Shown: positions 1,249-14,261 of the stretch, piece after piece
Layout of the letters: each line of letters starts with the position of its first letter
Numbering within the stretch: the first letter of the stretch is position 1
From: a virus
IMG/VR virus record: IMGVR_UViG_3300004481_000091
Coordinates: 1-16,221 of that record
Reading direction: 5' to 3' (one strand)
DNA: 16,221 nucleotides
Notes under the pieces: generated by a model
Seen by the model: the letters and a program-made list of their open reading frames with translations, nothing else
Told to the model about the DNA's origin: nothing
Database searches by the model: none
Program-made: the position numbers and the translations under genes

Positions 1249-2618
1249 GGGGTCACCTCGGGTGCGGGTTCCAGCGCGGCCAGGAGCGGTACGCCCTTGA
1301 TACGGATGATGTCGCCACCCTCGACCGGGGGGAGGTTCCGGACGGCCCGAGCCTCGTTGATGGTCATCAGCCCGCCGTCCACCTGCTTGTTCAGCAGGTC
1401 AACCTCAGCCTCGGGTGACGGCCGCTCCAACCCGCTGAAGTCGAACTCAACGAACCGATCCCCGCGGAGCAGACGCGAGAGCCGCTGCTCGATCAGGGCC
1501 GCCCACGGCGCCAGGACCGTGCGGCCCATGCCCCGATTGGACTCAGCGACCCCGGTACCCCAAGAGGTCTGCTTGTCGGTCTGCATGAGCAGGTGCGGGG
1601 GCACGCCCGTCCAGCGGCTGATCTCCTCGACCTGGAACGCCCGCGACTCGATGAACTGCGCGTCCTCCGCGCTCATCGTCCAGGGGGTGAACTTCAGGCG
1701 CCGGTTGACGAACCGAATGCCGCTCGCGTTCTCCCAGCCGGCCACCTTGCGCTGCAACGCCTCATTGATCAGCGCCGCGTCGTCGTCCTCTGTGTCGTCA
1801 CCCTCTGGACTGACCAGTCCGGAGATGAGCGCGCCGTTGTTGAACATGTTCGCCGCGGCCCGGTCACCGGCGATCGCCGTCCCGAGCGAGTTGCGGGCCA
1901 TGGTGAGCAGAGACAGGCCAACGATCCCGTCAGTGCTCATGCTCGGAATGTGCGTAAGGGTCGAACCGTCGTGCGTCTCCATGCTGCCGTCGAGCATCGT
2001 GATCGTGAACAGCTTGCCGCCGACCACAGGCCGGTTGCTGTCCGGCCAGTACCGCGCCACCTCGGTCCGCACGCACAACGGGTGCGCGGGAACGAGCGAG
2101 ACGATCTGACCGGCCCCACCTCGGACGTGCAGCAGGAACGCGTTACCGTGCAAGATCAAATGGACGAGGACGGTCTGCTTCCACTCGAACGCGGTCGGCC
2201 CGTCCGGGCCGCCTGGAGTGTCCAGGAAGCTCTTGACGCGCTCCCGCTGGCCGGGTGCCGGTTCGGCCAGGGCCCGCATCGGTAGCTGTGCCAGGGTGCC
2301 GCTGATGAGCAGCACGGCCCGGAAGAATGCGGCGATTCCGAGCGCGGTCTGTTCGTCGACCTCGACGCCGCTGTAGTTGGGCGGGCCGACGTTGAAGATG
2401 GCCGCGAAGTTGGGATCCGACACGGAGATCAGTGATCTCTGTTCGGCCTGCTCCTGCCTTGTCCAAGGCCACCGGATCTTCACGACGCGATCATACGCCG
2501 AACGCGACCAACTAGGTACGATGATCACATGAGATGCGTCGCTGGTCAGCTCGCACAGACGGTCATGGATGCCGTCGATGGTCTCGACGTCACTGACCAG
2601 GACGAGCCGGTCATCCAC
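1245..2618 (-). CDS. Portal protein (HK97-family portal). The 5' end is uncertain.
   Basis: 457-aa maximal ORF (GTG at 2618). Portal-like segments include ...YSGVEVDEQTALGIAAFFRAVLLISGTLAQLPM... and ...FIESRAFQVEEISRWTGVPPHLL... It sits directly upstream of the protease. An alternative start is the GTG of VKIRWPW near 2484. The first ~90 nt of the maximal ORF overlap the terS ORF on the other strand. Confidence 0.85.
   Translation of the reverse strand: MDDRLVLVSDVETIDGIHDRLCELTSDASHVIIVPSWSRSAYDRVVKIRWPWTRQEQAEQRSLISVSDPNFAAIFNVGPPNYSGVEVDEQTALGIAAFFRAVLLISGTLAQLPMRALAEPAPGQRERVKSFLDTPGGPDGPTAFEWKQTVLVHLILHGNAFLLHVRGGAGQIVSLVPAHPLCVRTEVARYWPDSNRPVVGGKLFTITMLDGSMETHDGSTLTHIPSMSTDGIVGLSLLTMARNSLGTAIAGDRAAANMFNNGALISGLVSPEGDDTEDDDAALINEALQRKVAGWENASGIRFVNRRLKFTPWTMSAEDAQFIESRAFQVEEISRWTGVPPHLLMQTDKQTSWGTGVAESNRGMGRTVLAPWAALIEQRLSRLLRGDRFVEFDFSGLERPSPEAEVDLLNKQVDGGLMTINEARAVRNLPPVEGGDIIRIKGVPLLAALEPAPEVTP
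2517..2531 (+). promoter_or_regulatory. Candidate -10 element (TACGAT) placed to give a leaderless terS mRNA starting at ATG 2529
   Basis: GGTACGAT followed by 6 nt and then ATG. There is no Shine-Dalgarno upstream. The GGTACGNT-N6/7-ATG arrangement matches the one at 6731-6748. Confidence 0.25.
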
Positions 2619-2822
2619 CTCGCGATCAGCTACGCACGGCTGATCGACCAGGTGCCGGACTACGCGTCAAAGGTCGGTCCGATGCTGCTGGCCGCGCTCG
2701 AAGCGCTGCTGATGACTCCGCGCGCCCGTGCGGCGATCGTGAAGGGGGCGAACAGTGACCAGCGCAAGACACAGTCCCCGCTCGACGAACTCCGAGCGAA
2801 ACGAGCAGGGCGCGCCGGATGA
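2529..2822 (+). CDS. Small terminase subunit candidate (short, P27/HK97-type C-terminal signature)
   Basis: 97-aa ORF ending 1 nt before a GTG in the terL frame. It contains ...LAISYARLIDQ...MLLAALEALLMTPRARAAIVKG...SPLDELRAKR, which resembles the C-terminal helices and basic tail of small terminases. It lies immediately upstream of terL on the same strand. Confidence 0.5.
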   Translation: MRCVAGQLAQTVMDAVDGLDVTDQDEPVIHLAISYARLIDQVPDYASKVGPMLLAALEALLMTPRARAAIVKGANSDQRKTQSPLDELRAKRAGRAG

Positions 2823-2823
2823 C

Positions 2824-4302
2824 GTGCTGGGTGTGCCCGTCCCCCGGCTCTGGACACCCCCGCTCCGTGAACTGACTCCGGAGACCAGCTACGGGTTCGA
2901 CGTCGTTGACTTCGCCCGTGACGTGATGCTCATGCCCCTCGACCCGTGGCAAGAGTGGCTGGTCATCCACCTCGGAGAGTTGCTGATCGATGGCCGGCCG
3001 AGGTTCCGTACCGTGCTGGTGCTGGTCGCCCGCCAGCAAGGCAAGAGCCACCTGGCCCGGGTGTTGACCTTGTACTGGATGTTCGTCGACCAGGTCCCGC
3101 TCGTTCTCGGGCTGAATGCCACCCTGGCGTACGCCAAGGAGCAGTGGACGATGGTGTGCGAGACCGCAACTGGAAACGAGTGGCTGGCCGAGGAGCTGCC
3201 GAGCAACGCGATTCGCGCGACGATCGGCGAAGAGTGCCTGAGGACGACCAACGGAAGCCGGTACAAGATTGCGGCGAGCAACCGGAAGGCCGGTCGAAGC
3301 CTGACCATCGACCGGGTGCTGGCCGACGAGCTCCGCGAGATGCGCACGTGGGACGCGTGGAACGCTGCCGAGAACGCCATGAACGCCCGCCGGTACGCGC
3401 AACTCGTGGCGATCACCAACCAGGGCGATGACACCGCGGTCGTGCTCGACGCACTCCGTGGCCCGGCCCTGGAGTACATCGAGACCGGGCAGGGCGATCC
3501 GAGGCTCGGGATGTTCGAGTGGTCGTCCCCGATGGGATCGGATCCGTGCGACCTGGAAGCGCTTGCCCAAGCCTGCCCCGACCTCGGCAACAGAACCGAC
3601 CCTGACGCACTGCTCGGGAAGGCCGCGAGGGCGAAGCGCGCCGGAGGTGCGGAGCTGGCCAGCTTCCGCACAGAGGTCATGTGCATGCGCGTGCAGCTGC
3701 TCGATCCGGCGATCGATCCGGACTGCTGGAAGGCGTGCGCGACCACGACGCCGCTTGACCTCGCAACGGTCAGAAACCAGGTCGCGCTCTGTCTCGACGT
3801 GTCCCTGGACGGGTCGCATGCGTCGCTCGTCGCCGCGGCCGAGGTTGACGGCCTGGTGCACATCGACGTGGTCAAGGCGTGGTCAGGTTTTGGGTGCACG
3901 AAGGCGGTGCGCGCCGAGCTGCCTGCGATCGTGGCGCGGGTGAAACCTCGGGTGGTCGGCTGGTTCCCGAACGGACCGGCCGCCGTCCTCACGGCGGACA
4001 TGGCCAAGAAGCGCGCCCGCAACTGGCCACCGCGGCGAGTGAAGATCGAGGAGCTCAAGGAGGAGATGACGGCCGTCTGTATGGCTCTGCCGGCCCTGGT
4101 CGAGGGGAACGAGGTTCGGCAGGCCGACGATCCGATGCTCAACGCGCACGCGGGTGCGGCACAGAGGCTGATGCGCGCCAACGGAACGTGGGTGTATCAG
4201 CGGGCGGGTACCGGGCCGATCGATGGGACGTACGCGATGGCGGGCGCCGTGCACCTTGCCCGCACGCTGCCGCCCGCGCCCGCTCCGCTCGTCGTGATCT
4301 GA
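2824..4302 (+). CDS. terL: Large terminase subunit (Terminase_1-like ATPase plus RNaseH-like nuclease)
   Basis: The maximal ORF starts at GTG 2755. GTG 2824 is preferred because it follows the terS stop directly. Walker A-like VLVLVARQQGKSHL, Walker B-like LTIDRVLADELREM, and nuclease-domain ALCLDVSLDGSHASLV. The PRLWTPPLRELTPETSYGFDVVDFA...PWQEW N-terminus is typical of actinophage TerL. Confidence 0.9.
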   Translation: MLGVPVPRLWTPPLRELTPETSYGFDVVDFARDVMLMPLDPWQEWLVIHLGELLIDGRPRFRTVLVLVARQQGKSHLARVLTLYWMFVDQVPLVLGLNATLAYAKEQWTMVCETATGNEWLAEELPSNAIRATIGEECLRTTNGSRYKIAASNRKAGRSLTIDRVLADELREMRTWDAWNAAENAMNARRYAQLVAITNQGDDTAVVLDALRGPALEYIETGQGDPRLGMFEWSSPMGSDPCDLEALAQACPDLGNRTDPDALLGKAARAKRAGGAELASFRTEVMCMRVQLLDPAIDPDCWKACATTTPLDLATVRNQVALCLDVSLDGSHASLVAAAEVDGLVHIDVVKAWSGFGCTKAVRAELPAIVARVKPRVVGWFPNGPAAVLTADMAKKRARNWPPRRVKIEELKEEMTAVCMALPALVEGNEVRQADDPMLNAHAGAAQRLMRANGTWVYQRAGTGPIDGTYAMAGAVHLARTLPPAPAPLVVI

Positions 4303-4765
4303 GCGGGTACCCGCCGGAGTGGGTCGGTGCGTGCAGGTCGAGCGGGTACCCGGGGCGATGGTACCCGCCCGCTTACGCTGGCCCGGGTGCCCGACAACGG
4401 GCGGGTACCTCAGCGGGCGCCCGCACGCGGCCGAGGCGTAGGCGGGTACCCGCTTGTACCCGTTCGCGGTCGGGTACCCGCTCATCGTACCCGCGCTGTA
4501 CCCAGGTGGACTGCGGGTATAGATGATGACCTATCTAGCTCGAGGTTTCATCTACCACAGTCAATACCCGGTACCCGCCCGGTCATGCCCCCAACCGGCC
4601 CGAACACCCGCGCAAAAAAAGGACAGTACGGCGGGTGTTCCGATCGGTCAGGATCCTGAACTTTTTGGCTCCGCGCTGCCGCCCGCCCGATCTGCACGCG
4701 CATGCCCGCTCATCTTGCGGGTACCCGTCCGCACCTTCGGCGCTGCTCGCTCTGGCGGGTACATG
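4303..4765. repeat. Array of at least 14 copies of a GGTACC-centred palindrome (GCGGGTACCCGC) and its half-sites. It is a putative multi-site protein-binding region (cos/packaging recognition or other).
   Basis: Full or near-full palindromes at 4303-4314, 4343-4352, 4442-4453, 4471-4480 and 4717-4728. GTACCCG-type half-sites at 4360-4369, 4456-4462, 4487-4493, 4498-4504, 4564-4570 and 4570-4579. CGGGTA-type half-sites at 4401-4410, 4513-4520 and 4755-4764. One degenerate copy at 4384-4393. An AT-richer core lies at about 4519-4566. Confidence 0.85.
4602..4640. repeat. Perfect 10-bp inverted repeat (GAACACCCGC ... GCGGGTGTTC) around a 19-nt spacer containing an A7 tract. It is a possible terminator or protein-binding site at the end of the early operon.
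   Basis: The arms are at 4602-4611 and 4631-4640, with A7 at 4614-4620. It lies just downstream of the 91-aa gene stop (4648) on the minus strand, where the spacer reads as T7. Confidence 0.4.
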
Positions 4766-4923
4766 CCCATCAGCGCGTGCACGGCGGCCAACTCGATCAT
4801 CAGTTGCCGAGTGTTGACCAGCACGGGACACCCCGCCTCGGCCATGTCCTGTGCAGTGATCTTGGGCAGGTAGGCCAGTGCTAGGAGCCGCTCTGCCTGT
4901 GCTCGATGCTCGTCGTTCGTCAT
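4648..4923 (-). CDS. Hypothetical protein (91 aa), last gene of the early minus-strand operon
   Basis: ATG at 4923 is preceded by GGTGAGGA, and the gene follows the HNH stop closely. No recognisable motif. Its 3' third overlaps two copies of the GGTACC repeat. Confidence 0.55.
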   Translation of the reverse strand: MTNDEHRAQAERLLALAYLPKITAQDMAEAGCPVLVNTRQLMIELAAVHALMGMYPPERAAPKVRTGTRKMSGHARADRAGGSAEPKSSGS

Positions 4924-4930
4924 GTCGTCC

Positions 4931-5200
4931 TCACCACTTCGATACCGGGCGCGGCTCGGGTGAGATGCGCCCCGGGTTGCCTACGTGCAGGTTGCACGCT
5001 GCGCACGCGGGGACCAGGTCCAGGGGGCGATCGCCGTACGCCTTTCCGCGTACGTGGTGGATCGTGGTCGCCTCGCCCGTACAGACCCCTGCGATGAGCA
5101 GGGTGCACCTACCTCGGTTCTCCAGTCGGTTCGCTGCCAGCAAGGACGCTCGGAGCTCCCGCCAGCGCCTGGTAGAACCGTTCTTCCAGGATCGGCTCAT
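4931..5200 (-). CDS. HNH endonuclease (packaging-associated type)
   Basis: 89 aa: GSTRRWRELRASLL..., Cys pairs (C..C ... CAAC), and the core TTIHHVRGKAYGDRPLDLVPACAACNLHVG, which fits His-Asn-His. It occurs together with a P27-like terS, terL, an HK97-type portal, protease and capsid. Confidence 0.85.
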   Translation of the reverse strand: MSRSWKNGSTRRWRELRASLLAANRLENRGRCTLLIAGVCTGEATTIHHVRGKAYGDRPLDLVPACAACNLHVGNPGRISPEPRPVSKW

Positions 5201-5381
5201 GGGGGATATCCATCGCCTTCTCTGCCCGGAGAATGCTCTCCACGGTCTTTCCGCGTGACCGGCGCTCTCTGAAGGCTCGCTCGCGTACGTACTCGGCTAT
5301 GTCCGAGTCGACCCATACGTGTAGCTGTACGCGCTTCGTTCCGGTCGGGAATGACCCCGTATCACTGGTCATGCAGACCAT
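5109..5381 (-). CDS. Ribbon-helix-helix (CopG/Arc-like) DNA-binding protein
   Basis: KRVQLHVWVDSDIAEYVRERAFRERRSRGKTVESILRAEKA fits a beta-strand/helix/helix RHH pattern. A G-rich Shine-Dalgarno (GGGGGA) lies upstream of ATG 5381. The 3' 92 nt overlap the HNH gene in another frame. Confidence 0.55.
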   Translation of the reverse strand: MVCMTSDTGSFPTGTKRVQLHVWVDSDIAEYVRERAFRERRSRGKTVESILRAEKAMDIPHEPILEERFYQALAGAPSVLAGSEPTGEPR

Positions 5382-5406
5382 TTAACGGGGTCCCCCTACC
5401 TGATGT

Positions 5407-5721
5407 CTACCTCCGGTGGATGCCAGGGCATCGAGCAGAGGTGAGCGGGTCTGCCCCATACCACCAGCGATGCGGACTGTGCGGCGCCCGATCCGGGCAG
5501 TTGGTCATGCCATCGTGCAGCGTGCTACGAGCGATGAGTGCTGAGCGCAGCGCGTCGCTGTGGCACACGATCAGCGCGTCGAGAATCCACTGATCGACGC
5601 CTTCTTGACCAGCCAGCACGTAGCGATCAGCGTGCAGTTGGGCGATGCGGAGCAGGGTCTCTGGAGTGGTTTCCAGGTTCCTGAGTCTGATGATCTCCAA
5701 GTTGATCTCATCGATGGTCAC
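5407..5721 (-). CDS. Hypothetical protein (104 aa)
   Basis: The start is trimmed to GTG 5721 (AAAGGGG Shine-Dalgarno 6-7 nt upstream), 12 nt after the Rep-like stop. The longer 146-aa ORF would overlap the upstream gene. No recognisable domain. Confidence 0.55.
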   Translation of the reverse strand: MTIDEINLEIIRLRNLETTPETLLRIAQLHADRYVLAGQEGVDQWILDALIVCHSDALRSALIARSTLHDGMTNCPDRAPHSPHRWWYGADPLTSARCPGIHRR

Positions 5722-5732
5722 AATTGCCCCTT

Positions 5733-6623
5733 TCAGGCAGCGATGATCTTTCGTGCAGTGGGGTAGTGCTCCAACCAGCCGGCAGGACGCAGATGCTCGC
5801 GGCCCGCGTACGGGTCTTCTCCAGCGGCCAATTCGCCCTTGCAGCACGGGCAGGCGCTCCAGGTGCTACCGCGATGCAGCGGGCAGGGCCGCTCCGTGCC
5901 CTGAGCGCGTCTCTGTGGCTCCAGCGCGGCTATGCGTGCCGCGAGTACGCGACCGGGCATTCTGGCGCCGTCCAGGCTCTTGCCGGCTACCTCGGAGACG
6001 ATCTGAGATTCGGCCACGCCTCGCCCGATCGCCTCGATCGTCGCGGTTGTCATTCGACCAAAGTCCATGTTGGACAGTTGGGTTTCGAGCACAGGCAGGG
6101 CGGCCCGCACCCGAGCGACGCACGCCTGCCCTGCCGCTACCTCTCCGTCGGTGCGCTTTTCCCCAACCGATGCGAGCGGGGGGGAGGGGGGGGTTTCCCG
6201 AGGAAGGACGGGGAAAGACGGGGAGGGTGCGTCTACAGAGGCAGAAGGTGCGTCTACAGAGGCAGTAGGCGCGTCTGTAGACGCACCTTTACGTGAGTTA
6301 TCCACAGGCAGAGCGGGCAGGACGTATGTGGTCTGCCGTCCCTTGTGTGCGTAGATGGGGCGTCCGCGTGAATCTTCGCCATGCGAAACGCGGCACTCCA
6401 GTCCTCGAGAGGACAGCCGTTCCAGTACCTGGCGGAGCCGCGAGACTCCGATGATCGTCGAGAGGTTCCATCCGTCCGTATCCCATGCTCGGCGCGCATT
6501 CGGGCCGCGCTCCGAGGCGTTCTCGGCGATCACGTACAGCACCAGTCGCTCTGCCGGCGTGAGGTCACGTCCGGTCCCGCTGGCCAGGTAGTTTGTGACT
6601 TCCTGGCTGAGCTGCCATGCCAT
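5733..6623 (-). CDS. Winged-helix DNA-binding protein, candidate replication initiator
   Basis: The N-terminal wHTH-like segment is LTPAERLVLYVIAENA...STIIGVSRLRQVLERLSSRGLECRV...GRPIYA. A low-complexity P/S/A/T/D linker follows. The C-terminal domain has a Cys/His cluster (CPLH...CPCC). GAAAGG Shine-Dalgarno before ATG 6623. It is the first gene of the early operon, and repeats are embedded in the linker-coding DNA. Confidence 0.45.
   Translation of the reverse strand: MAWQLSQEVTNYLASGTGRDLTPAERLVLYVIAENASERGPNARRAWDTDGWNLSTIIGVSRLRQVLERLSSRGLECRVSHGEDSRGRPIYAHKGRQTTYVLPALPVDNSRKGASTDAPTASVDAPSASVDAPSPSFPVLPRETPPSPPLASVGEKRTDGEVAAGQACVARVRAALPVLETQLSNMDFGRMTTATIEAIGRGVAESQIVSEVAGKSLDGARMPGRVLAARIAALEPQRRAQGTERPCPLHRGSTWSACPCCKGELAAGEDPYAGREHLRPAGWLEHYPTARKIIAA
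6178..6193 (+). repeat. G7-A-G8 homopolymer pair, followed by further G4/G3 tracts up to about 6227
   Basis: Read directly: gggggggagggggggg, then ...acggggaaagacggggaggg. It encodes TPPSPP on the opposite (sense) strand of the Rep-like gene. Confidence 0.9.
6226..6287. repeat. Two tandem 21-bp repeats plus an inverted copy (candidate iterons) inside the Rep-like gene
   Basis: GGTGCGTCTACAGAGGCAGAA (6226-6246) and GGTGCGTCTACAGAGGCAGTA (6247-6267) are followed by a degenerate third unit. CTGTAGACGCACC at 6275-6287 is the exact reverse complement of GGTGCGTCTACAG. Confidence 0.85.
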
Positions 6624-6656
6624 ATGCTCGCCTTTCGGCTATGACTGTCGCCGTGC

Positions 6657-6684
6657 GCCCCGGGTCCCATGCCCGGGGCTTTTC
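6657..6684. promoter_or_regulatory. GC-rich hairpin (GCCCCGGG / CCCGGGGC, 7-nt loop) followed by T4, in the Rep/RHH divergent region
   Basis: The arms are at 6657-6664 and 6672-6679, with TTTT at 6680-6683. It looks like a terminator on the plus strand, but no plus-strand gene lies upstream. On the minus strand it falls in the 5' leader of the Rep-like gene. Confidence 0.4.
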
Positions 6685-6706
6685 CTTGCCCGCTGACTGT
6701 AGCAGT

Positions 6707-6725
6707 GTTCACTACCGTTCACTAC
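6707..6725. promoter_or_regulatory. Tandem direct repeat GTTCACTAC x2 (10-bp register), candidate operator upstream of the RHH gene
   Basis: GTTCACTAC at 6707-6715 and 6717-6725. It sits 8 nt upstream of a TACGCT -10-like hexamer (6733-6738), and ATG 6746 lies 7 nt after that hexamer. Confidence 0.45.
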
Positions 6726-6745
6726 GTTGTGGTACGCTGCGATAC

Positions 6746-6889
6746 ATGCTGATCGTCAAGGACACCATTCAGGTCAGGCTCGGCGCGTCGCTGTACGAGC
6801 GGATCTGCCGAGCAGCGGACAAGCGCGGGCTGAACCTCTCCAACCTCACCCGCATGATCTTCATCGACTGGCTTGAGCGAAACGAGTAG
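6746..6889 (+). CDS. Small ribbon-helix-helix (Arc/CopG-like) regulator, 47 aa, probably leaderless
   Basis: MLIVKDTIQVRLGASLYERICRAADKRGLNLSNLTRMIFIDWLERNE fits the beta/alpha/alpha RHH pattern. The start is trimmed from the 90-aa ORF to the ATG directly after a -10-like TACGCT, and there is no Shine-Dalgarno. Confidence 0.6.
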   Translation: MLIVKDTIQVRLGASLYERICRAADKRGLNLSNLTRMIFIDWLERNE

Positions 6890-6891
6890 CC

Positions 6892-7008
6892 ATGAAACGT
6901 CGCCGGGTACGACGAGCATGGTGGCGGCTCTGCCGCTACGCACGGGAACATCAGAGACGGGACTGTCCCGCTGAATATCGACACAACCACTGGCCGAGCA
7001 GCAGGTGA
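6892..7008 (+). CDS. Possible 38-aa arginine-rich peptide
   Basis: The ATG lies 2 nt after the RHH stop, and the stop lies 3 nt before the next ATG: MKRRRVRRAWWRLCRYAREHQRRDCPAEYRHNHWPSSR. Support comes only from tight packing, and the codon bias is weak. Confidence 0.3.
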   Translation: MKRRRVRRAWWRLCRYAREHQRRDCPAEYRHNHWPSSR

Positions 7009-7011
7009 GAG

Positions 7012-7161
7012 ATGAACAACGACGATGAGCGCGACTACGACGAGGAACCAGCGAACAACCAATCAGTATTCGAATATCAAGACCCGGAATGCACGCACTG
7101 CACGCACTGGTCTCGCATGGAAGACATTTGCTGCTGGTGCCACGACGATCCGGAGGTGTGA
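7012..7161 (+). CDS. Small acidic Cys-rich (CxxC ... CCxC) putative zinc-binding protein, 49 aa
   Basis: GGTGAGAG Shine-Dalgarno before ATG 7012. MNNDDERDYDEEPANNQSVFEYQDPECTHCTHWSRMEDICCWCHDDPEV. The stop lies 1 nt before the next GTG start. G/C is reasonably enriched at third codon positions. Confidence 0.5.
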   Translation: MNNDDERDYDEEPANNQSVFEYQDPECTHCTHWSRMEDICCWCHDDPEV

Positions 7162-7162
7162 C

Positions 7163-7444
7163 GTGGCGTATGTAAAGGACGAGTGCGACGCCTGTCAGGC
7201 TGCGATCATCTGGGCGCGCAACGAGAAAACCCTGAAGATGATGCCGATCGACTATGAGCCGGTCGACGTCAATCGGGGAGGTGGAACGATCATTCTCACC
7301 CTCCAGCCTGGTGTGTGGCCATCGGCGAAGGTGGTCACGAATCCCGCGAAACTGTTCGGTGTTCGGATTGTGTACCGGTCGCATTTCGACACGTGTCCAC
7401 ACGCGCATCGCTATAGGCGCGCGCGGACACGTGCAGGCGCCTAG
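7163..7444 (+). CDS. Hypothetical 93-aa protein with CxxC ... CPH motifs and a basic tail
   Basis: GGAGG lies 6 nt upstream of GTG 7163. VAYVKDECDACQAAIIWARNEKTLKMMPIDYEP...YRSHFDTCPHAHRYRRARTRAGA. The start is trimmed from the 139-aa ORF. Confidence 0.6.
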   Translation: MAYVKDECDACQAAIIWARNEKTLKMMPIDYEPVDVNRGGGTIILTLQPGVWPSAKVVTNPAKLFGVRIVYRSHFDTCPHAHRYRRARTRAGA

Positions 7445-7536
7445 AACAGCGCGCCCATCCCCCCGAACATCATCATGAGCCCGTAATAGAGGCTTACCAG
7501 GCCCACATTACCGGCCAGGGCATACCAGAATCGCAT
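7441..7536 (-). CDS. Possible 31-aa hydrophobic membrane peptide at the end of the late operon
   Basis: MRFWYALAGNVGLVSLYYGLMMMFGGMGALF, found by manual translation. It starts 26 nt after the minor tail gene stop, and only a weak GGGAA lies upstream. Its TAG stop shares the CTAG at 7441-7444 with the convergent plus-strand gene. Confidence 0.35.
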   Translation of the reverse strand: MRFWYALAGNVGLVSLYYGLMMMFGGMGALF

Positions 7537-7562
7537 CTTGTTTTCCCGACGCTGCCGGGTGG

Positions 7563-8066
7563 TCAAATGGCCACCCGATAGCTTCCTGTGATGCGCAACC
7601 AATCCCCTGTTGTCCATGATGATGACAAGCCTCCCGAGCCAATGTTTCCCCCGGCTGCGTCATACCAGCCGGCAAGGTGTGTGGTGTCAACGTAGCTCGT
7701 CCCGCCCACTCTGAGCGCGACTCCGGATTCGTTGATCGTGATGTGGTACGCGCCGTTCTCTGACGCATGAGCCGCGAAGGGGAGCAGAAATCGATACGCG
7801 CCAGATCCCGCGTTGAATCCTCCACCGGTGTCGATGCTGAGTAGGTACTGAAACGCACAGATATCCGAATTTGCCGCGCGCCGGTACACGGCGGTTACCG
7901 ATGAGCTGCCCTGCGTCGGGTTGGTGGTCGCCGCTGTGAGCAGGGTCGCCCACGTGCCGTAGGACGTCCATCCGGGCGCGGTCAGCGAGTCGACCTGGTT
8001 GACGATGGCCTGGAGTTGCGCGCCGGTGAGCCGTTGGCCGGCTGAGAAGGTGAGTCCGAGCGTCAT
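7563..8066 (-). CDS. Minor tail protein, candidate receptor-binding protein (167 aa)
   Basis: It is the last sizeable gene of the tail module. The N-terminal LTGAQLQAIVNQVDSL motif is common in actinophage minor tail and fibre proteins. The remainder is G/S/T-rich and beta-like. GAGGTAGGA Shine-Dalgarno. Confidence 0.6.
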   Translation of the reverse strand: MTLGLTFSAGQRLTGAQLQAIVNQVDSLTAPGWTSYGTWATLLTAATTNPTQGSSSVTAVYRRAANSDICAFQYLLSIDTGGGFNAGSGAYRFLLPFAAHASENGAYHITINESGVALRVGGTSYVDTTHLAGWYDAAGGNIGSGGLSSSWTTGDWLRITGSYRVAI

Positions 8067-8072
8067 GGGGTC

Positions 8073-10160
8073 CTACCTCGCGAGAATGAACGGGTCGACG
8101 ACGTGTACCTGCTGGCCGGTGGTGTGCGCCTTGACGACGCCGTTGACGCTCCTGGTCAGCGTGAGGGTCTGTGTGTAGGCGCCGGGGGTACCGCCGACCG
8201 CTGATACCGCCGTCACCGTGCACCGCTCGCCACTGATCAGCACGTCGTAGTCGCCGCTGGCGTGCGTCCAGGCGCACAGGTCGGCACAGGCGACGTCACA
8301 GAGGGTTTCCGTGGTGGTGAGCGCCTCGGCGGTGGTGCAGGCGCCGCAGTCGAGGTATCCGGCGTTGTCGAGGACACCAACGTCGAACATGTCGGCCGGG
8401 GTGGTCCCGATGGCGAGGGTGCGCCGGTGGTTGGTGCTCTGCTCGGTCAGGCTGGTGACCAGGAGCCGCGGCGTGTTCGGGTCTTCGGTGACGGGCACGC
8501 CTGACAGCTCGATGACGCTGCCGACGTCGATGCCGGTCACGTCGACTGCGCTGGCGTCAAGGTCGACGACGAGGTTATCCCACCGCGCCTTCTCCGAGGT
8601 GCGGGTCGCGACGAACCAGCCGGCGATGTCGAGCAACTGCCCATCGGTCTCGGGGTTGACGGCCAGGCTGGAGTCGTAGCGGCCGACACCGTTCGGTGGC
8701 GCCAGGATCGACATCGGCCCGGTGGTCAGAGTGACGCGGGCGTTGACGTTGCCCCGGGTCGCCTGCACGTCGTTGCGGACGTCCCGATCGTCGAGGACGG
8801 GCGCCCCGGTTGGGGTGATGTCCCCGGACCAGGCCAGGGTCTGTGCTGTGGTCTGGTTGTACAGCTCCGACAGGGGTTTGTAGACCAGGCCGATGGCGTC
8901 GGAGTCTTCGAACAGCACTCCGCCATCGGTTCTGGCGGTCTCGGTGAGGATCGCGGGCAGCGTCGCCAACGGCTGCGGGCCCATCGGGGTTGTCTCCGCC
9001 GCGGTCCCGAGAACGGTGATCGTCACGCTCTCCTCGGCGCAGATTCGGGTCATCCGGTCTGCGGCGGTCTCACCGGTCCAGGCGATCATCGCCTGTGAGT
9101 TGTCCGGCGAGGCGGTGTCGTACACGGCGAGGTGGCCGATGTACACCGTGGCTGCCCCGATGTCCGGGAACACCTCTTGTGGGTCGGTGGTCAGGTTCAG
9201 GATCCGGCCGACGGTTGACGCGGTGGTTGCCACGCCGAGTGAAACACCGTCCAGGAACAGCTCTACCAGCATGTTCGCTCCGGATTGGGTCACGGTGGCC
9301 CGGACGTGGCGCCAGGTTCCCCGGAAGGTCACGACGTCGGAAACGCCTGACGCGGTTGTGCTCGACTTCAGGGTGCGGTGGTAGACCGCCAGGATCTCGA
9401 TGTTGCTGGAAGTGTCGTACTGGTAATCGATCGTCCAGTGCGTTTCTTCCCCGGTGGTGTCCCATCCGACGAACCTGACCAGGTCATCTTGTGTGGTGTC
9501 CGGGTCGACGTAGGCCATGAACTCGATGTCGAAGCGGCCAGCGGTCGAGTTCAGTTGGGTGCGGAGCCCGCCGAGTCGGCCGCTGGCGATGGTCCGGACG
9601 AGTACCGGCTTCCCTGGTGCGCCAGCGGGCCCGTCCGGTGCGGTGTCCTCGCTGAACAGCGGCGCGTCGACCATCTCCAGCGGCGTGCCACCGGCGATGC
9701 TGCTCGCCGCGCTCGTCGACCCCTTCGCGTCGTTCAGCTGCCAGTAGCCGATGGGGTCACCGGACAGGACACCGCGCTCCAGGGCCGCGCGGAGCGGCGT
9801 TGAGCCGCGGTTGAGCCGCTGGAGTACGCCAGCAGCGGCAATCTCGGTCCACCGGTCCCCGCCCGCGGTGCGCTTCGGCTTCCAGGATGTTTCGCCGGTC
9901 CATCGCACCGCGCCGTCCACGGTGATCCGGATCGGCGTGTTCCGGCCGACGAGACCGTAGACCGGGCTCGTCGGGTTGAGCGGCGACCAGGCGCCATCCA
10001 CTGACCGGATCGAGCCGGACAGGGCCGCCGGCACCGGCTCCAGGGTCACCGGCGAGTAGGCCCGCGACCACCTCAGCGGCGAGCGGATCAGGAAAGTGCT
10101 GGTGTGGTCGTGCCACGCTGACGAGTAGTACAGCTCGATCAGAACGGTATGCGCGGTCAT
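8073..10160 (-). CDS. Distal tail (Dit)-like minor tail protein with an inserted LamG/concanavalin-like domain (695 aa)
   Basis: It lies immediately after the tape measure (ATGA overlap). The N-terminus is ...GSIRSVDGAWSPLNPTSPVYGLVGRNTPIRITVDG... as in actinophage Dit-type proteins. The central segment IGYWQLNDAKGS...TWRHVRATVTQSGANMLVELFLDGVSLG...VYIGHLAVYD matches the LamG-like pattern. The C-terminus is Cys-rich. Confidence 0.65.
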   Translation of the reverse strand: MTAHTVLIELYYSSAWHDHTSTFLIRSPLRWSRAYSPVTLEPVPAALSGSIRSVDGAWSPLNPTSPVYGLVGRNTPIRITVDGAVRWTGETSWKPKRTAGGDRWTEIAAAGVLQRLNRGSTPLRAALERGVLSGDPIGYWQLNDAKGSTSAASSIAGGTPLEMVDAPLFSEDTAPDGPAGAPGKPVLVRTIASGRLGGLRTQLNSTAGRFDIEFMAYVDPDTTQDDLVRFVGWDTTGEETHWTIDYQYDTSSNIEILAVYHRTLKSSTTASGVSDVVTFRGTWRHVRATVTQSGANMLVELFLDGVSLGVATTASTVGRILNLTTDPQEVFPDIGAATVYIGHLAVYDTASPDNSQAMIAWTGETAADRMTRICAEESVTITVLGTAAETTPMGPQPLATLPAILTETARTDGGVLFEDSDAIGLVYKPLSELYNQTTAQTLAWSGDITPTGAPVLDDRDVRNDVQATRGNVNARVTLTTGPMSILAPPNGVGRYDSSLAVNPETDGQLLDIAGWFVATRTSEKARWDNLVVDLDASAVDVTGIDVGSVIELSGVPVTEDPNTPRLLVTSLTEQSTNHRRTLAIGTTPADMFDVGVLDNAGYLDCGACTTAEALTTTETLCDVACADLCAWTHASGDYDVLISGERCTVTAVSAVGGTPGAYTQTLTLTRSVNGVVKAHTTGQQVHVVDPFILAR

Positions 10161-11446
10161 GCTGGCGTCCCGAGCGTGATCTGAACGTCCCCGCCGCGGC
10201 GCCCGATCGCCTCGGCGAGGATGTCAACCAACGCATCGCCGATGCGGGTGCCATCCGATTGGATGACGATCGGTGCCGGCTTGGACGCTTGCCCTGGTGG
10301 TGTGATGGTCTCACCGGCCTGGAGTACGGCGACCATTTCAGATCCGGGCGGCCCTGGCACGGTCCCTCCGGAGTGGAACTTCGGCAGGTGCGGCGCGCTG
10401 ATCGTGTTGCCGCCGATCTGCGGCACCCAACCGGGCACCGACCAGGACAGCCGGCCGACGGTGTTGTTCCACGCGTCCGCAACGAAGTTGAACGCGGTTC
10501 TGAACGGCCAGCTGATGATGCTGACCAGGCCCGAGAACGCCGACCGGAGGACGCCGGGTATGCCGGCCATCTTGTCCAGCATGAACTTGCCGGCGTTCCA
10601 CGCCATGGTGTACCCGCCAACGATCCAGTCAACGACGAACTGGAATGTGGCTTTGATGGCTTTCCAGGTGGCTTCCCACGCGGTCTGGAACCAGGTGGTT
10701 TTCGTGGCGATCACGATGATGGCGCCTACCAGTGCGGCGATACCCAGCACGATCAGCCCGATCGGGTTGGCGGACAGGGCGACGTTCAGCAGCCACTGTG
10801 CCGCCGTCCAGACGCCGGTAGCGACCGCCGAGGCGCCCATCGCGACCTTGCTCGCGACCATGCTGGCCGTTGACGTGATGGTGGAGGTGTTCAGCGCGGT
10901 GTTGGCGAGCATGAGTAGGTCAGTCACGCCGACCACACCCATGATGATCGGGCTGATCAGTTCCATCTTTTCCCCCCACTCTTGGATCTTGGAGGGTGGT
11001 TCTGCGTCGCGCTGCGCCTGGTTGAGCGCGAGCTGGGCCTCACGTGCTTCGATCGAGCCGGCCCCGAACTCCTTCGTCGCGTCGGTCAAGTCCTTCTGGG
11101 CCTTCTCGACGTTGATCTGTGCCTGCGCCTGCCGGTCGGCTGCGCTGGCCGCGGCGTCCTGAAGGTCGGTGAACGCGGTCATCGCGCCACCGATGTCACC
11201 TACCCCGCCGGAGAGTTGCGAGAAGGCGCCCGAGGCGGTGTCCAGGGATTCCCCGAGGCGGCCCGAGGCCCGGCCCATCGAGTCGAACGCCTGTTCTGTC
11301 GAGCCCATCTGGCTCGACATGGCCGATGAGGCCCGGCCGACGTCGGCCGCCATGCCAGCGGCGCCCTGGCCGACGCGGGCCATAGCCTTCTCTACCGCGA
11401 GGCTGTCACCGGCGAAGGTGAGTGTTACCTGGTTGCCGGCCATCAC
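10157..11446 (-). CDS. Tail tape measure protein (about 429 aa, short)
   Basis: It has a coiled-coil, A/Q-rich N-terminal region and central hydrophobic segments (ELISPIIMGVVGVTDLLMLA..., NPIGLIVLGIAALVGAIIVIA). It lies between the chaperone region and the Dit-like gene. The start is GTG 11446 or ATG 11443, overlapping the upstream stop. Confidence 0.85.
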   Translation of the reverse strand: MMAGNQVTLTFAGDSLAVEKAMARVGQGAAGMAADVGRASSAMSSQMGSTEQAFDSMGRASGRLGESLDTASGAFSQLSGGVGDIGGAMTAFTDLQDAAASAADRQAQAQINVEKAQKDLTDATKEFGAGSIEAREAQLALNQAQRDAEPPSKIQEWGEKMELISPIIMGVVGVTDLLMLANTALNTSTITSTASMVASKVAMGASAVATGVWTAAQWLLNVALSANPIGLIVLGIAALVGAIIVIATKTTWFQTAWEATWKAIKATFQFVVDWIVGGYTMAWNAGKFMLDKMAGIPGVLRSAFSGLVSIISWPFRTAFNFVADAWNNTVGRLSWSVPGWVPQIGGNTISAPHLPKFHSGGTVPGPPGSEMVAVLQAGETITPPGQASKPAPIVIQSDGTRIGDALVDILAEAIGRRGGDVQITLGTPA

Positions 11447-11859
11447 GTCACGTCCAGGCCAGCGTCAGAGACCACCTTGGCGAGGGCGGTCTCAAGAATC
11501 GCCTGGAAGCGCTCCCGGTTGGCGTAGAACGCGGGGTACACGTACCGGCCGTCCCCGATGAACGGGCGCCGTGCGGTCTTGTTCCGGCCCGTGCGCCCGC
11601 CGTAGTCCAACCAGGGGAAGTACGGTGCCCGCTTGCCACCGGAGGTAACCCGGGCCGCCGTGCGGGTGCTGGCGGCCCGGATGGACTGTGCGGCACGGCC
11701 GGTGCGGCGCGGTACGCCGGCCCGCGCCGCTTCGACAACGACCATCGCTGCCTCGTTCGCCGCGAGCCGGAGCGCCTTCGGTGCGTCGCTGGAGATCGAG
11801 CGCAGAGACCGGTTCAGCTGGGCGAGGCCTTCCACCCGTACCGTGTCGATGATCGGCAT
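11443..11859 (-). CDS. HK97 gp10-family head-tail/tail completion protein (138 aa), in an atypical position
   Basis: MPIIDTVRVEGLAQLNRSLRSIS...AANEAAMVVVEAARAGVPRRTGRAAQSIR...RAPYFPWLDYGGRTGRN...RPFI resembles the HK97 gp10-like family pattern. The ATG directly follows the TAG of the T-frame ORF. Confidence 0.6.
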   Translation of the reverse strand: MPIIDTVRVEGLAQLNRSLRSISSDAPKALRLAANEAAMVVVEAARAGVPRRTGRAAQSIRAASTRTAARVTSGGKRAPYFPWLDYGGRTGRNKTARRPFIGDGRYVYPAFYANRERFQAILETALAKVVSDAGLDVT

Positions 11860-12054
11860 CTATCCCGCCTTCAGTCGTGCCAGCTCTTCCCGTTGCGCCC
11901 GCCGTGCGTAGAAAATGCACCAGTGGAGGAATTCGTCACTCGACATCGAGTGGCGGAGTTCCTCCACTGTCCGGCCCAACTTCTGTGCTAGGTAGAACTC
12001 GAACTCCATCGTCGGATCCGCTTCGAAGGCTTTTGTACGCCTCCTTGTCGGCCC
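11860..12054 (-). CDS. T-frame extension of the tail assembly chaperone, reached by a +1 (or -2) frameshift from the G frame
   Basis: The frame is open from 12081 to TAG 11860-11862. It encodes ...MEFEFYLAQKLGRTVEELRHSMSSDEFLHWCIFYARRAQREELARLKAG, and no Shine-Dalgarno precedes its internal ATG (12009). Candidate slip sites are CCG-GGG-GCC (G5 run at 12052-12056) and TAC-AAA-AGC (A4 run at 12031-12034). Confidence 0.5.
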   Translation of the reverse strand, partial: GPTRRRTKAFEADPTMEFEFYLAQKLGRTVEELRHSMSSDEFLHWCIFYARRAQREELARLKAG

Positions 12055-12331
12055 CCGGGCCCATGCCCGAGAGTTTCGTGATCAGCATGGTGACCGGCTC
12101 AATCTCGCCCGCCGGCGAGGCATTCTGCCACTGGCCGGCCTCCTCCTCTGAGATCTCCGGATCGACCATGCCGAATCGAAGCATGATCCGCTCTTGGGCT
12201 GAGACGCCCTTGACGGACTGCATGACGATCGCCTCGTGACGCGACAGCCCGCGCACGAGGACCATCCCGACCCCGGGAATCTGGATTGCCTCTTGAGGCA
12301 GGCGCGGTTTGAACAGCTCGGCCCTATCCAC
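11936..12331 (-). CDS. Tail assembly chaperone (G-like), 131 aa
   Basis: The start is trimmed to GTG 12331 (GGGAGAG Shine-Dalgarno right after the major tail stop). It lies between the major tail protein and the tape measure region. An overlapping downstream ORF in another frame is the hallmark of G/GT chaperones. Confidence 0.65.
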   Translation of the reverse strand: MDRAELFKPRLPQEAIQIPGVGMVLVRGLSRHEAIVMQSVKGVSAQERIMLRFGMVDPEISEEEAGQWQNASPAGEIEPVTMLITKLSGMGPGADKEAYKSLRSGSDDGVRVLPSTEVGPDSGGTPPLDVE

Positions 12332-12341
12332 GGTGCTCTCC

Positions 12342-12740
12342 CTACTGTGCGGTCGTGTTGACCAGTCCCGAGACCGTTGTATCACAGGACCACGTGATCA
12401 TACCGGCTACGGGGTTGGTCTCTACGTACTTGTCGATCGTCGCGGTGAAGCTGTCCTGTGGTAGGCCGCCCCCGGTGCCCTCGGGCCGCCGGACGATGGT
12501 CGCCTTTGTGGCGATCAGCCCGTTGAGGGTGGCTCTCGGGCCGCCCGCGGACGACTCGTACACCCCGCCCATCTTGAACGAGCCGGACCGCAGACCCGTG
12601 TCGTACGCGTAGTCATCTGCGCCGTAGCACGTCACATCATGCTTGTCGCCTGCACGCTCAAACTCGGACGTGTTGGTGTACGCGGATAGATCAATTCCCC
12701 CGACCGTGATGACCGTTTCCTTGCCGTGGACGAATGCCAT
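12342..12740 (-). CDS. Major tail (tube) protein, 132 aa
   Basis: MAFVHGKETVITVGGIDLSAYTNTSEFERAGDKHDVTCYGADDYAYDTGLRSGSFKMGGVY... resembles the tail tube protein pattern. It lies directly upstream of the chaperone pair. GGAGAG Shine-Dalgarno. Confidence 0.7.
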   Translation of the reverse strand: MAFVHGKETVITVGGIDLSAYTNTSEFERAGDKHDVTCYGADDYAYDTGLRSGSFKMGGVYESSAGGPRATLNGLIATKATIVRRPEGTGGGLPQDSFTATIDKYVETNPVAGMITWSCDTTVSGLVNTTAQ

Positions 12741-12752
12741 GATCCACTCTCC

Positions 12753-13256
12753 TTACGCCGACGCGCCGATGATCACAACGTCGTAGGTGACGCCCGTGCC
12801 GGCTGCCGAGTTGGTGACGGTTAGCAGGTCCCCAGTCCCCGCCGTCACCGCGATACCGGCCGCGTTCGGGGCGATCCAGTGGAACACCCCGCCGGGTAGG
12901 ACCGGCAGACCATCGCCAGCGGCCAGGAACAGCGGTACACCGTTCGCAGCCGGCCGGGTGACGTTGACGTTGTTGGTGTTGGCTGCCGCGGCGACGATCC
13001 AGACCTCTTTGATCCGGGCGAACGTCAACGTGGTACCGAACTTGTCGACGAGCACGCCGGCCAGGTCCAGGTCTTCTGTCCCGCTGGCCGCGAGGGTCCG
13101 CCGGTCATGGAACATGAGGTCTGCCTGGTTCGCCCCAACCCCACTGGCCAGGTCGACCCGCTTCGTGATCGCCAACGGGTCAACCGGGCTCGACAGGTCG
13201 GCGGTCGCCGTCTGCGTTGCCTCGATGACGGTTGTGCTGCGCACTACCAGCGTCAT
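12753..13256 (-). CDS. Hypothetical virion-module protein (167 aa), T/A/G-rich and beta-like
   Basis: The start is trimmed to ATG 13256 (GGGAGG Shine-Dalgarno), 5 nt after the upstream stop. It lies between the terminator-like gene and the major tail gene. No motif recognised. Confidence 0.55.
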   Translation of the reverse strand: MTLVVRSTTVIEATQTATADLSSPVDPLAITKRVDLASGVGANQADLMFHDRRTLAASGTEDLDLAGVLVDKFGTTLTFARIKEVWIVAAAANTNNVNVTRPAANGVPLFLAAGDGLPVLPGGVFHWIAPNAAGIAVTAGTGDLLTVTNSAAGTGVTYDVVIIGASA

Positions 13257-13260
13257 TTCT

Positions 13261-13665
13261 TCAGCCTCCCTGGCCGGTGATCTCACAGGAGAAGATGGCC
13301 GCGAGGTACTGCGTTGCGGCCAGCTCATACACATCGGGGACAACCCCAGTCACCCGGATGCTGTCGAACACGGTTGTCCGGCCGGACTCCAGGGCCGCCT
13401 TGACGCTGGCCGCTCCCGTGGCCCGGAGGTAGTCGGACAGCGCGGTGCGGGTTGAGCGATCGGTTGGCTTCCCGACCAGCACGACGACGGGAATGGTCAT
13501 GCCCTCCATGCCGTTGGCATACGTCTCGTCGTAGTCGTACGCCTCGGGGTAGGCCACGATCGCCGCTGGCGGGGTAGCGGACCCCAGTGGCCACTCATGG
13601 ACCCGCAGACCCGGCACGGTCCGCAGACGCGTTGCCAGCTCATCCATGACAGCTTCGAGGATCAT
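13261..13665 (-). CDS. Head-tail joining / tail terminator-like protein (134 aa)
   Basis: Its start overlaps the adaptor stop (ATGA). The size, position and the pattern MILEAVMDELATRLRTVPGLRVHEWP...PPAAIVAYPE...IPVVVLVG fit neck or tail-terminator proteins (DUF3168-like). Confidence 0.5.
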   Translation of the reverse strand: MILEAVMDELATRLRTVPGLRVHEWPLGSATPPAAIVAYPEAYDYDETYANGMEGMTIPVVVLVGKPTDRSTRTALSDYLRATGAASVKAALESGRTTVFDSIRVTGVVPDVYELAATQYLAAIFSCEITGQGG

Positions 13666-14261
13666 GCGACGCTCCAGGATCTGACGTAGTGCCCGAGCGA
13701 CACCCGCACGTCGGGGTCGACCGTGGCGAGGAGCCGTAGCTCCGACCCGTCCGACGGCGAGCCGGCAATGCCGTACGGGGACTCACGGCGGGCGAGAAAC
13801 CGGGCCGCCTGGAGCAGCGAGGCTTGCTTGACCGGACTGGGGACAGCAGACCATCCCCACGCGACGGTCACGCCGATCTCGTCATCGTCCCCGGTGCATG
13901 TGACCGCAGTCCCCAGCGCGATCTGTGTCCAGACCTTGCCCTTGTCGACCGCGCGCGTCGGCTCCTTGACGTAGTCCGTGGTGGCCACGCCGTTGACCTT
14001 CACGACCAGGCCGGCAGTGGTGGCGAAGTCGTCGACGACCACCACCCACCGGCCTCGCCGACGGTCGTACTCAGCCTTGTAGAACCATTCAGCAGCAGCA
14101 GCGAGGACACCGAACTGCCGATGGCACGCTTTGTCGACCGCGCGGGCGGCCGAGATGCACGCCAGCACGATCTCAGCGTCGTCGGCAGTGTCGCTGGCCT
14201 CCATGCGGAGGTAGCCCTTCAGGTCGACGTCGCTGGCGTAGTAGTCCGGTGCCCAAGCCAC
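13662..14261 (-). CDS. Head-to-tail adaptor (gp6/gp15-like connector)
   Basis: YASDVDLKGYLRMEASDTADDAEIVLACISAARAVDKACHRQF and C-terminal VPSPVKQASLLQAARFLARRESPYG are typical adaptor signatures. GTG 14261 has an AAGGGG Shine-Dalgarno. Confidence 0.7.
   Translation of the reverse strand: MAWAPDYYASDVDLKGYLRMEASDTADDAEIVLACISAARAVDKACHRQFGVLAAAAEWFYKAEYDRRRGRWVVVVDDFATTAGLVVKVNGVATTDYVKEPTRAVDKGKVWTQIALGTAVTCTGDDDEIGVTVAWGWSAVPSPVKQASLLQAARFLARRESPYGIAGSPSDGSELRLLATVDPDVRVSLGHYVRSWSVA

Follow-up and report, generated by a model that had tools for sequence, protein, structure and literature searches.

Between the large terminase gene terL and an HNH endonuclease-like gene, the IMG/VR virus record IMGVR_UViG_3300004481_000091 carries a dense array of short palindromes centred on GGTACC. 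What does such an array do, and is it the place where terminase recognizes and cuts the phage genome? We analysed the whole record (16,221 nucleotides (nt), hereafter the window) together with relatives gathered by TerL, HNH, orf296 (a 296-aa protein of the window) and motif searches, which are designated here as A, B and C or by L numbers. The comparison points to a cohesive-end site (cos) that is distinct from the array, and suggests that the constant partner of the array is instead the 3′ end of terL.

The array and the cos site

A preliminary description of this DNA, made without database searches, had reported a dense array of GGTACC palindromes from terL to the HNH operon, and this was confirmed by counts against expectation and against shuffled sequence. 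GGGTACCC has five matches, all in 4305-4726, for an expected 0.19, and none of 200 shuffles reaches five. GTACCCG occurs 22 times on the two strands (2.2 ± 1.4 expected), with 17 of these matches in 4205-4762, while 14 of the 16 exact heptamers GCGGGTA/TACCCGC of the genome fall in 4204-4761. The copies listed at that stage were accurate, except that one CG-centred palindrome had been missed (Table 1); the background was slightly undercounted, since lone GTACCCG half-sites at 6904, 10610, 14447 and 14870 have to be added to the copy at 334. The AT-richer core with its TAGATGA/TCATCTA repeat is present as described, and the last two copies do lie inside the 91-aa open reading frame (ORF) of the minus strand. 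Sites are spaced by 11-17 bp in a tight run at 4442-4519, and inverted half-sites, GCGGGTA at 4513-4519 and TACCCG-G-TACCCGC at 4565-4578, flank the AT-richer core. The core sequence ctatctaSctcgaggt is kept in A, more loosely in C and L165, and is absent from B. The array region is non-coding, as several indels separate the window from A, most of which (including one of 11 nt) are not multiples of three. Its first palindrome, P1, directly follows the terL stop in six genomes (the window, A, C, L165, L061 and L365), the TGA stop and P1 together forming the left part of an extended site, TGAGCGGGTACCCGC.

The genome ends could be placed by using assembly breakpoints, not virion DNA ends, as a proxy. 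At least thirteen independent contigs of relatives, from different samples (A, B, L010, L064, L165, L176, L178, L180, L186, L362, L364, L366 and L367), terminate at the equivalent of 4626/4627 or at 4629-4635. The left genome end, reading toward terL, is thus 4626 and the right end 4629-4635. At the left end, contig A starts with CTGTCCTTTTTTTGCG, B with GTGTTTTTTTTGTG, L010 with ATGTTTTTTCTCTC, L176 with CTGTTCTTTCTCTC, L178 with CTGTCCTCTCTC, L180 with GTGTTTTGTCTCTC and L064 with CTGTTCTTTCTCTCC, and the contigs L165, L362, L364, L366 and L367 finish at the reverse complement of that left-end sequence. At the right end, A and L186 finish with ...GGAACAC and B with ...ACACCCGCCG, the break of B lying at 4628/4629. 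The assemblies of the window and of contig C read through this site. In contig A, the two ends leave out precisely TACGGCGG (4627-4634), which suggests a cohesive end of about 8 nt at these positions; the loss fits a 3′ overhang that was removed in library end repair, and it is from this that we infer the polarity.

These breakpoints fall in a compact element at 4602-4641, composed of an inverted repeat, an A7 tract and two near-symmetric arms around the spacer TACGGCGG. The element is kept beside the HNH stop in canonical (L006, L009, L011 and L171) and in inverted relatives, whether or not they have an array. HNH homologues adjoin it in A, B, L004, L006, L009, L011 and L186, and in L066 the homologue is one ORF (about 500 nt) upstream. 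All relatives have an A7/T7 or CT-rich tract at +7 to +13, counted from the left end. We identify the element, with high confidence, as a cos site, which is of the HK97 type. In HK97 itself, TerS binds a single 15-bp A-tract site located 15-29 bp from the cut, and the HNH protein gp74 stimulates cos cutting (PMC11331095). By analogy, TerS probably has its primary site in the conserved A7/T7 tract and the adjoining sequence, at most about 30 bp from the cut, and this A/T or CT-rich tract appears to be a better candidate for that role than the array. Terminase, aided by the adjacent HNH protein, would then cut at 4626/4627 and 4634/4635. The earlier expectation, argued from HK97-like phages, that the genome ends lie within the reported interval beside the HNH gene was thus borne out; the more precise proposal that the termini fall in the AT-rich core, at 4500-4570, was not, as the breakpoints at 4626/4627-4634/4635 belong to a distinct conserved element.

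Similar to HK97, the window has an HNH gene immediately upstream of cos, a small TerS of the P27/Terminase_6 type, an HK97-fold capsid, an S78 protease, a portal and defined genome ends. It also has, about 15 bp or less from the cut, an A/T tract that is a candidate counterpart of the stretch bound by HK97 TerS (PMC11331095). It differs in that terS-terL is inverted, so that cos abuts the 3′ end of terL and not the 5′ end of terS, in that the predicted overhang is about 8 nt instead of 10 nt, and in the palindrome array, which HK97 lacks. Just inside the right genome end lies a further palindrome, TCAGGATCCTGA, followed by five T residues. It is kept in A and L186, with one mismatch in C, and may either terminate transcripts that read through from terS-terL or belong to the sequence recognized at cos.

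Table 1. Features of the window, in order of position (strand given where assigned).
Feature	Positions	Strand	Remarks
Capsid	spans window ends	-
S78 protease	670-1248	-
Portal	1245-2618	-
TerS (P27/HK97-like, Terminase_6)	2529-2822	+	Pfam PF23931, E = 3.8e-9; LMTPRAR motif; present in all relatives
TerL	2755-4302	+	phrog_9, E = 7e-63; stop TGA 4300-4302
Outlying near-palindrome GCGGGTACCGGG	4204-4215		inside terL 3′ end
Palindrome P1 GCGGGTACCCGC	4303-4314		directly 3′ of terL stop
Palindrome P2 GCGGGTACCCGG	4342-4353		kept in A
Half-site GTACCCGC	4361-4368		GTACCCG at 4361
Degenerate copy CGGGTGCCCG	4384-4393
Half-site GCGGGTAC	4401-4408		CGGGTA(C) at 4402
CG-centred palindrome GCGGGCGCCCGC	4413-4424
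P3	4442-4453		full or near-full palindrome
Lone GTACCCG	4456-4462
P4	4470-4481		full or near-full palindrome
Lone GTACCCG	4487-4493
Weaker copy GTACCCA	4498-4504
Lone GCGGGTA	4513-4519
AT-richer core	4519-4566		TAGATGA/TCATCTA repeat
Weaker GTACCCG copy	from 4565
Lone GTACCCG	from 4571
cos site	4602-4641		inverted repeat + A7 tract + GGACAG / TACGGCGG / GTGTTCC
10-bp inverted repeat GAACACCCGC / GCGGGTGTTC	4602-4611 / 4631-4640		part of cos
A7 tract	4614-4620		part of cos
GGACAG / TACGGCGG / GTGTTCC	4621-4641		near-symmetric arms around spacer
Palindrome TCAGGATCCTGA, then T5	4648-4659, 4662-4666		13-31 nt inside right genome end
91-aa ORF	4648-4923	-	C-terminal tail covers right-end sites, reaching 13 nt from cos
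Palindrome P5 GCGGGTACCCGT	4717-4728		right-end site
Half-site GCGGGTAC	4755-4762		CGGGTA(C) at 4756; right-end site
HNH endonuclease-like protein	4931-5200	-	phrog_333, E = 4.4e-4 (weak); adjoins cos, HK97 gp74 position
Small early genes, block	5100-8066	-
Ribbon-helix-helix (RHH) protein	5109-5381
orf296 (296-aa protein)	5733-6623	-	winged-helix-like N-domain, Cys-rich C-terminus (CPLHRGS...CPCCKG)
Weak RHH-like ORF	6617-6889	+
Head-tail and tail genes	8073-14261	-

Distribution of array and cos among relatives

In the window, terS-terL is the sole late module on the plus strand and is inverted relative to the portal, capsid and tail genes. The same inverted layout is found in A, B, C, L004, L061, L066 and L362-L367, and the canonical order HNH > cos > terS > terL > portal in L006, L009, L011, L064 and L171. 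About 17 genomes of the inverted type, out of thousands, were inspected. An array with an adjacent cos is found in the window, A, B, C and L165, which form one subclade with TerL at least 77% identical. Elsewhere the two elements come apart. In L066 the array abuts the terL stop and the cos-like element is 1.6 kb or more away, with four ORFs between them. In L363 the array begins about 50 nt past the terL stop, and six genes but no cos element follow in the 2.8 kb beyond. Conversely, cos lies 31-123 nt past the terL stop without any array in L004, L364, L366 and L367, and L362 has an intact cos, no array, and a 131-aa gene between cos and terL; TerL of these five array-less inverted relatives is 61-72% identical. 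The canonical relatives have no array at cos, and in one of them, L064, an array lies 5.4 kb from cos, between a head gene and the adaptor gene. L061 and L365 have the array on fragments that do not include cos.

In nine genomes (the window, A, B, C, L165, L061, L066, L363 and L365), which comprise all compared genomes of the inverted type that have an array, the array stands 0-75 nt from the terL stop. In B and L186 it also follows the last forward gene, and in L064 it follows a head gene. This distribution indicates that the array is tied to the convergent junction at the 3′ end of terL and not to cos. An array of the cosB type should travel with cos, which is not the case in L004, L362, L364, L366, L367 and the canonical relatives, nor in L066, L363 and L064. 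The proposal that the array is the terminase/HNH recognition region, made when only the window had been read, is thus not supported, given the five relatives with cos and no array and the three in which the array is remote from cos.

Three of these loci call for separate mention. In L362, the 23-nt gap between the terL stop and the converging 131-aa gene contains a different perfect 22-nt palindrome (GACCATGGTC GC GACCATGGTC, 11230-11256). In L066, the four forward ORFs between the cos-like element and the array (10686-12170), the first three of them very alanine-rich and repetitive, resemble cargo of the moron type inserted at the left end of the genome. The tail of contig L365 (11616-11736) is the reverse complement of its terL 3′ end, joined via a palindrome copy, and is probably an artefact in which the palindromes made the assembler fold back.

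Possible roles of the array

The reading that we tentatively favour, while leaving ample room for others, takes cos as a separate element and the array as a facultative, fast-evolving palindrome cluster at the 3′ end of terL, acting as a barrier or 3′-end element at the head-on junction. This role, which is read from position only, would be exerted by protein binding, RNA self-pairing or both. The units would most likely be duplex-DNA sites for a symmetric dimeric protein. The occupied array, the complementary RNA repeats, or both would then form a barrier and a 3′-end element at the terL junction, which would stop converging transcripts from running antisense into the opposite operon. The array of the window would touch cos only through the layout of the genome. 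As no gene is specific to the array-bearing phages, the binder would have to come from the host or from the core protein set of the phage.

The evolution of the repeat unit is informative in this respect. The unit is a palindrome of 10-18 bp, (TGAG)CGGG-YR-CCCG(CTCA), where YR is a pyrimidine-purine step, with the extended consensus TGAGCGGGTACCCGCTCA. Over 66 unique copies from 14 loci the 10-bp core CGGG-YR-CCCG is invariant, among genomes whose TerL is only 50-90% identical, and information decays outward from it. The centre is limited to the YR step, TA or CG being preferred (p = 0.004). Between the window and A (TerL 88% identical) the palindromes are kept and the P1-P2 spacer, 4315-4340, is scrambled. 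In these two genomes, which are roughly 90% identical, TA/CG centres have been swapped at three sites (4418-4419, 4457-4458 and 4475-4476): 4418-4419 is CG in the window and TA in A, and the sites at 4456 and 4470 are TA in the window and CG in A. Each swap is a double transition that preserves self-complementarity and the YR step, and two of the three are neighbouring copies changing together. Compensatory covariation at ±6 to ±9 was not seen beyond chance in the 66 copies (p = 0.53-0.84). Half-sites also occur singly, C has a run of four direct heptads, and in L186 and L041 direct repeats are phased by 11 bp. Taken as sequence patterns, these features are better explained by duplex sites that a symmetric dimer would bind than by hairpins formed from single palindromes. 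Array copies may nevertheless pair with one another in RNA, one pair showing a potential inter-copy compensation (GTACCCG/CGGGTAC in the window, GCGCCCG/CGGGCGC in A).

Several observations weigh against a barrier at the terL junction. It cannot be essential, because array-less relatives handle the same junction in 31-123 nt, and P5 and one half-site are inside the 91-aa ORF, an odd place for a terminator. No binder emerged from the co-occurrence comparison described below. We found no canonical promoter or terminator in 4150-5450, with a promoter scan of the sigma-70 type only, and no U-tracts 3′ of the palindromes. RNA folding gives z-scores of about -5 on both strands, but these are uninformative, being an automatic by-product of palindromic repeats. 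Moreover, the five closest genomes (the window, A, B, C and L165) keep the array beside cos, and some distances to the genome ends are similar: left half-sites are 50/57/108 nt from the left end in the window and A and 27-35/97 nt in C and L165, and right-side sites are 93/94 nt from the right end in the window, A and L186. An accessory packaging role of the array is thus possible.

Such a role is the main rival of the barrier reading. The palindromes would be TerS (or terminase-HNH) sites of a cosB/cosQ-like array that assembles the packaging complex on both sides of cosN, in the manner of the R sites and the IHF site of lambda cosB. We consider this unlikely on balance, yet several features speak for it. 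In the window, A, B, C and L165 the array fills the interval between terL and the left genome end (its left sites lie 50-320 nt from that end in the window), and more sites are found 68-177 nt inside the right end. Right-side positions are also at about 127/129 nt in A and L186, 109-177 nt in B and 81/112 nt in L066. The orientation of the lone half-sites is biased, with mirror symmetry about cos, and TerS is the only small DNA-binding protein common to all array-bearing genomes. Similar to the R3-I1-R2-R1 and cosQ elements of lambda, short sites are repeated beside cosN on the first-packaged end, a conserved, bendable AT-rich core with an inverted half-site on either side is located about 50-110 bp from the cut, in an arrangement that resembles R3-I1-R2, and further elements are found across cosN. 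In contrast to lambda cosB, the sites of this family are perfect palindromes in up to about 15 copies, and the array is kilobases from cos or absent in close relatives: the same cos element occurs without an array in the five inverted genomes listed above and in all canonical relatives, and intact arrays that are still duplicating lie at least 1.6 kb (L066, L363) or 5.4 kb (L064) from cos. In HK97, one A-tract site of 15 bp is enough for TerS (PMC11331095), and since this family has kept an equivalent tract, the array is probably not the primary terminase site.

Neutral or selfish expansion is another serious rival, although we rate it as rather improbable. A palindrome prone to slippage or recombination would have proliferated, without adaptive value, in the only long dispensable spacer of a densely packed 16-kb genome and been homogenised by gene conversion. 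The patchiness of the array among close relatives, the copy number of about 4 to 15 and the recent tandem duplications (33-nt units in L066, the four heptads of C) are what one would expect from such a process, and palindromes do cause assembly fold-backs, as in L365. In addition, two control GC-rich GTAC palindromes gave 4 and 1 loci on viral contigs (at least 7 half-sites per 500 nt), compared with about 3 loci of the real motif outside the family. Nevertheless, a purely neutral repeat would hardly keep its sites while the adjacent spacer is scrambled, its core invariant at such TerL divergence, P1 at the terL stop in six genomes, and similar site-to-cos distances in diverged genomes. The array also recalls the repetitive extragenic palindromic (REP) sequences and bacterial interspersed mosaic elements (BIMEs) of enterobacteria, in which one short GC-rich palindrome is clustered at gene 3′ ends and convergent junctions, with variable copy number, a patchy distribution among relatives and possible hairpins on both strands. 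Here, however, the units are 10-18 bp and not about 35 bp, compensatory stem changes are missing, lone half-sites and direct repeats are common, the cluster is carried by a phage genome of 16 kb, and a RAYT transposase is not known to take part. Conserved short palindromes are also repeated between the genes of other high-GC actinobacteriophages. Those of Cluster O mycobacteriophages, for example, are 17 bp long and spread along the structural operon, whereas the window packs 14 of 16 copies into one 560-bp locus.

The phased direct repeats and palindromes would also suit RHH or iteron binders, so the array could be an operator or iteron bank bound by the RHH protein (5109-5381), the RHH-like product (6617-6889) or the winged-helix protein of orf296, the AT-rich core at 4519-4566 beside the repeats serving as an unwinding element. 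This seems doubtful to us. An argument for it is L041, an otherwise unrelated 16.6-kb contig in which the same array follows an RHH gene (E = 4.8e-4) after 320 nt and is 1.5 kb away from a homologue of the very rare orf296 (E = 2e-29); since L041 carries all three, array, RHH gene and orf296 may have moved as a block. Yet their co-occurrence breaks down elsewhere. The RHH family (orf90) is present in the window, A, L066, L186 and L041 and not in B or L363, and the orf296 N-domain is found in the window, A, L186 and L041 and is absent from the array-bearing B, L066 and L064. B is a complete genome with an array, without RHH, orf296 or the AT-rich core, and its unrelated early region encodes a RepA-like ATPase and an HTH_58 protein; this weakens the alternatives of an RHH operator or an origin that had been raised at the outset. 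L187 has an orf296 homologue and no array, and no promoter-like sequence was found in or beside the array, which lies between converging gene ends. More generally, in a co-occurrence comparison no window protein turned out to be shared by all genomes with an array and missing from those without one.

The palindrome might alternatively be the recognition site of a sequence-specific host factor, or of a second activity of a core packaging protein, which inverted-terminase phages would recruit to insulate the head-on terL junction. Such a mobile, protein-bound insulator, carried as a module between unrelated small actinophages, would account for L041; we regard it as improbable.

Motif copies outside the family were considered separately. 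Arrays in L025/L026, L038, L056 and L057 had suggested a shared host factor, an idea that we rejected because the two control palindromes, which have the same composition, gave similar numbers of arrays; that of L057 is a coding repeat. Scanning the genome collection with the motif returned mostly two-copy matches, in many Actinomycetota, and also coding repeats (in GYPP-type proteins; L077, L122, L086 and others). Non-coding arrays of the same GAGCGGGTACCCGC unit occur on contigs of Myxococcota metagenome-assembled genomes (L089 7080-7420 and L120 250-460), one of which is 16.5 kb long. No window-like proteins were found at the genome-collection loci, including L089 and L120, and the Myxococcota arrays may be due to chance, mis-binning or a wider phenomenon. 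A full-text literature search for CGGGTACCCG retrieved cloning primers only. By inspection, we also discarded a CRISPR array (the repeats are too short and cas genes are missing), an attP site (no integrase in the window), an invertase site (a recombinase is missing, and the terS-portal junction has no copy of the motif) and SigF/SigB-type -10 elements (GGGTAY; no matching -35 elements).

Finally, Chi-like protection of the ends, in which oriented G-rich octamers (TGAGCGGG) would attenuate a host RecBCD/AdnAB-type nuclease entering at the cos ends after injection, is very improbable: sites do occur near both physical ends, lone half-sites are mostly mirror-oriented about cos and the half-site contains AGCGG, which we take to be the core of the Bacillus Chi, but arrays kilobases from the ends (L066, L363 and L064) leave the intervening genes unprotected, many relatives have no array, one half-site of B is in the wrong orientation, and we know of no actinobacterial Chi sequence for comparison.

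Genome context and significance

The window begins and ends with an identical direct repeat of 110 nt (1-110 and 16112-16221) and the capsid gene is split across the junction, from which we conclude that a complete genome of about 16,111 bp was assembled as a closed circle. It has a G+C content of about 66% and belongs to an HK97-like siphophage. The gene map is based on profiles of G+C at third codon positions and on Pfam and PHROG matches. The true start of TerS is probably the ATG at 2565; its sequence gave no match in the PDB. The 91-aa ORF is 90% identical in A and was not detected in the other compared relatives, B and L186 included. The product of orf296 has no Pfam match, belongs to a family with 7 matches among 5.8 billion proteins, and may be a replication or regulatory protein. 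At the terS-portal junction, the other breakpoint of the inversion, there is no motif copy and no recombinase. The longest terS and portal ORFs overlap head to head by about 90 nt (2529-2618), so that, even with later starts, divergent promoters are confined to a very short or coding stretch.

Scans of the whole genome gave one promoter-like and four terminator-like matches, both numbers being below shuffle expectation, and an Rfam scan of 4000-5400 gave nothing above threshold. The best canonical hairpin with a T-run in the genome lies in the early region, at 6657-6679 on the plus strand (GCCCCGGG-TCCCA-TGCCCGGGGC TTTT), near the start of orf296 and the RHH-like ORF.

The nearest cultured phages share only about 35% TerL identity with the window. 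In metagenomes, by contrast with this distance, more than 2,383 TerL homologues were found at E < 1e-100, many on contigs of 15.6-17.7 kb, and prophage copies of the TerL family are present in Kribbella and Haloactinopolyspora. The host can be assigned to Actinomycetota.

For this very large uncultured family of actinobacterial siphophages of about 16 kb, cos could thus be fixed to the nucleotide without virion DNA. One branch of the family has flipped its terminase operon, with the consequence that cos abuts the 3′ end of terL. A conspicuous repeat array beside cos need not be a terminase site, and in this case comparative positions separate the two. We regard the array as a clean, selected and fast-evolving cis-element. 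If it is a protein-bound barrier at the head-on junction, it would show how phages answer the inversion of an operon. If TerS binds it, an HK97-type system would possess a cosB with many sites, against the current paradigm of a single one.

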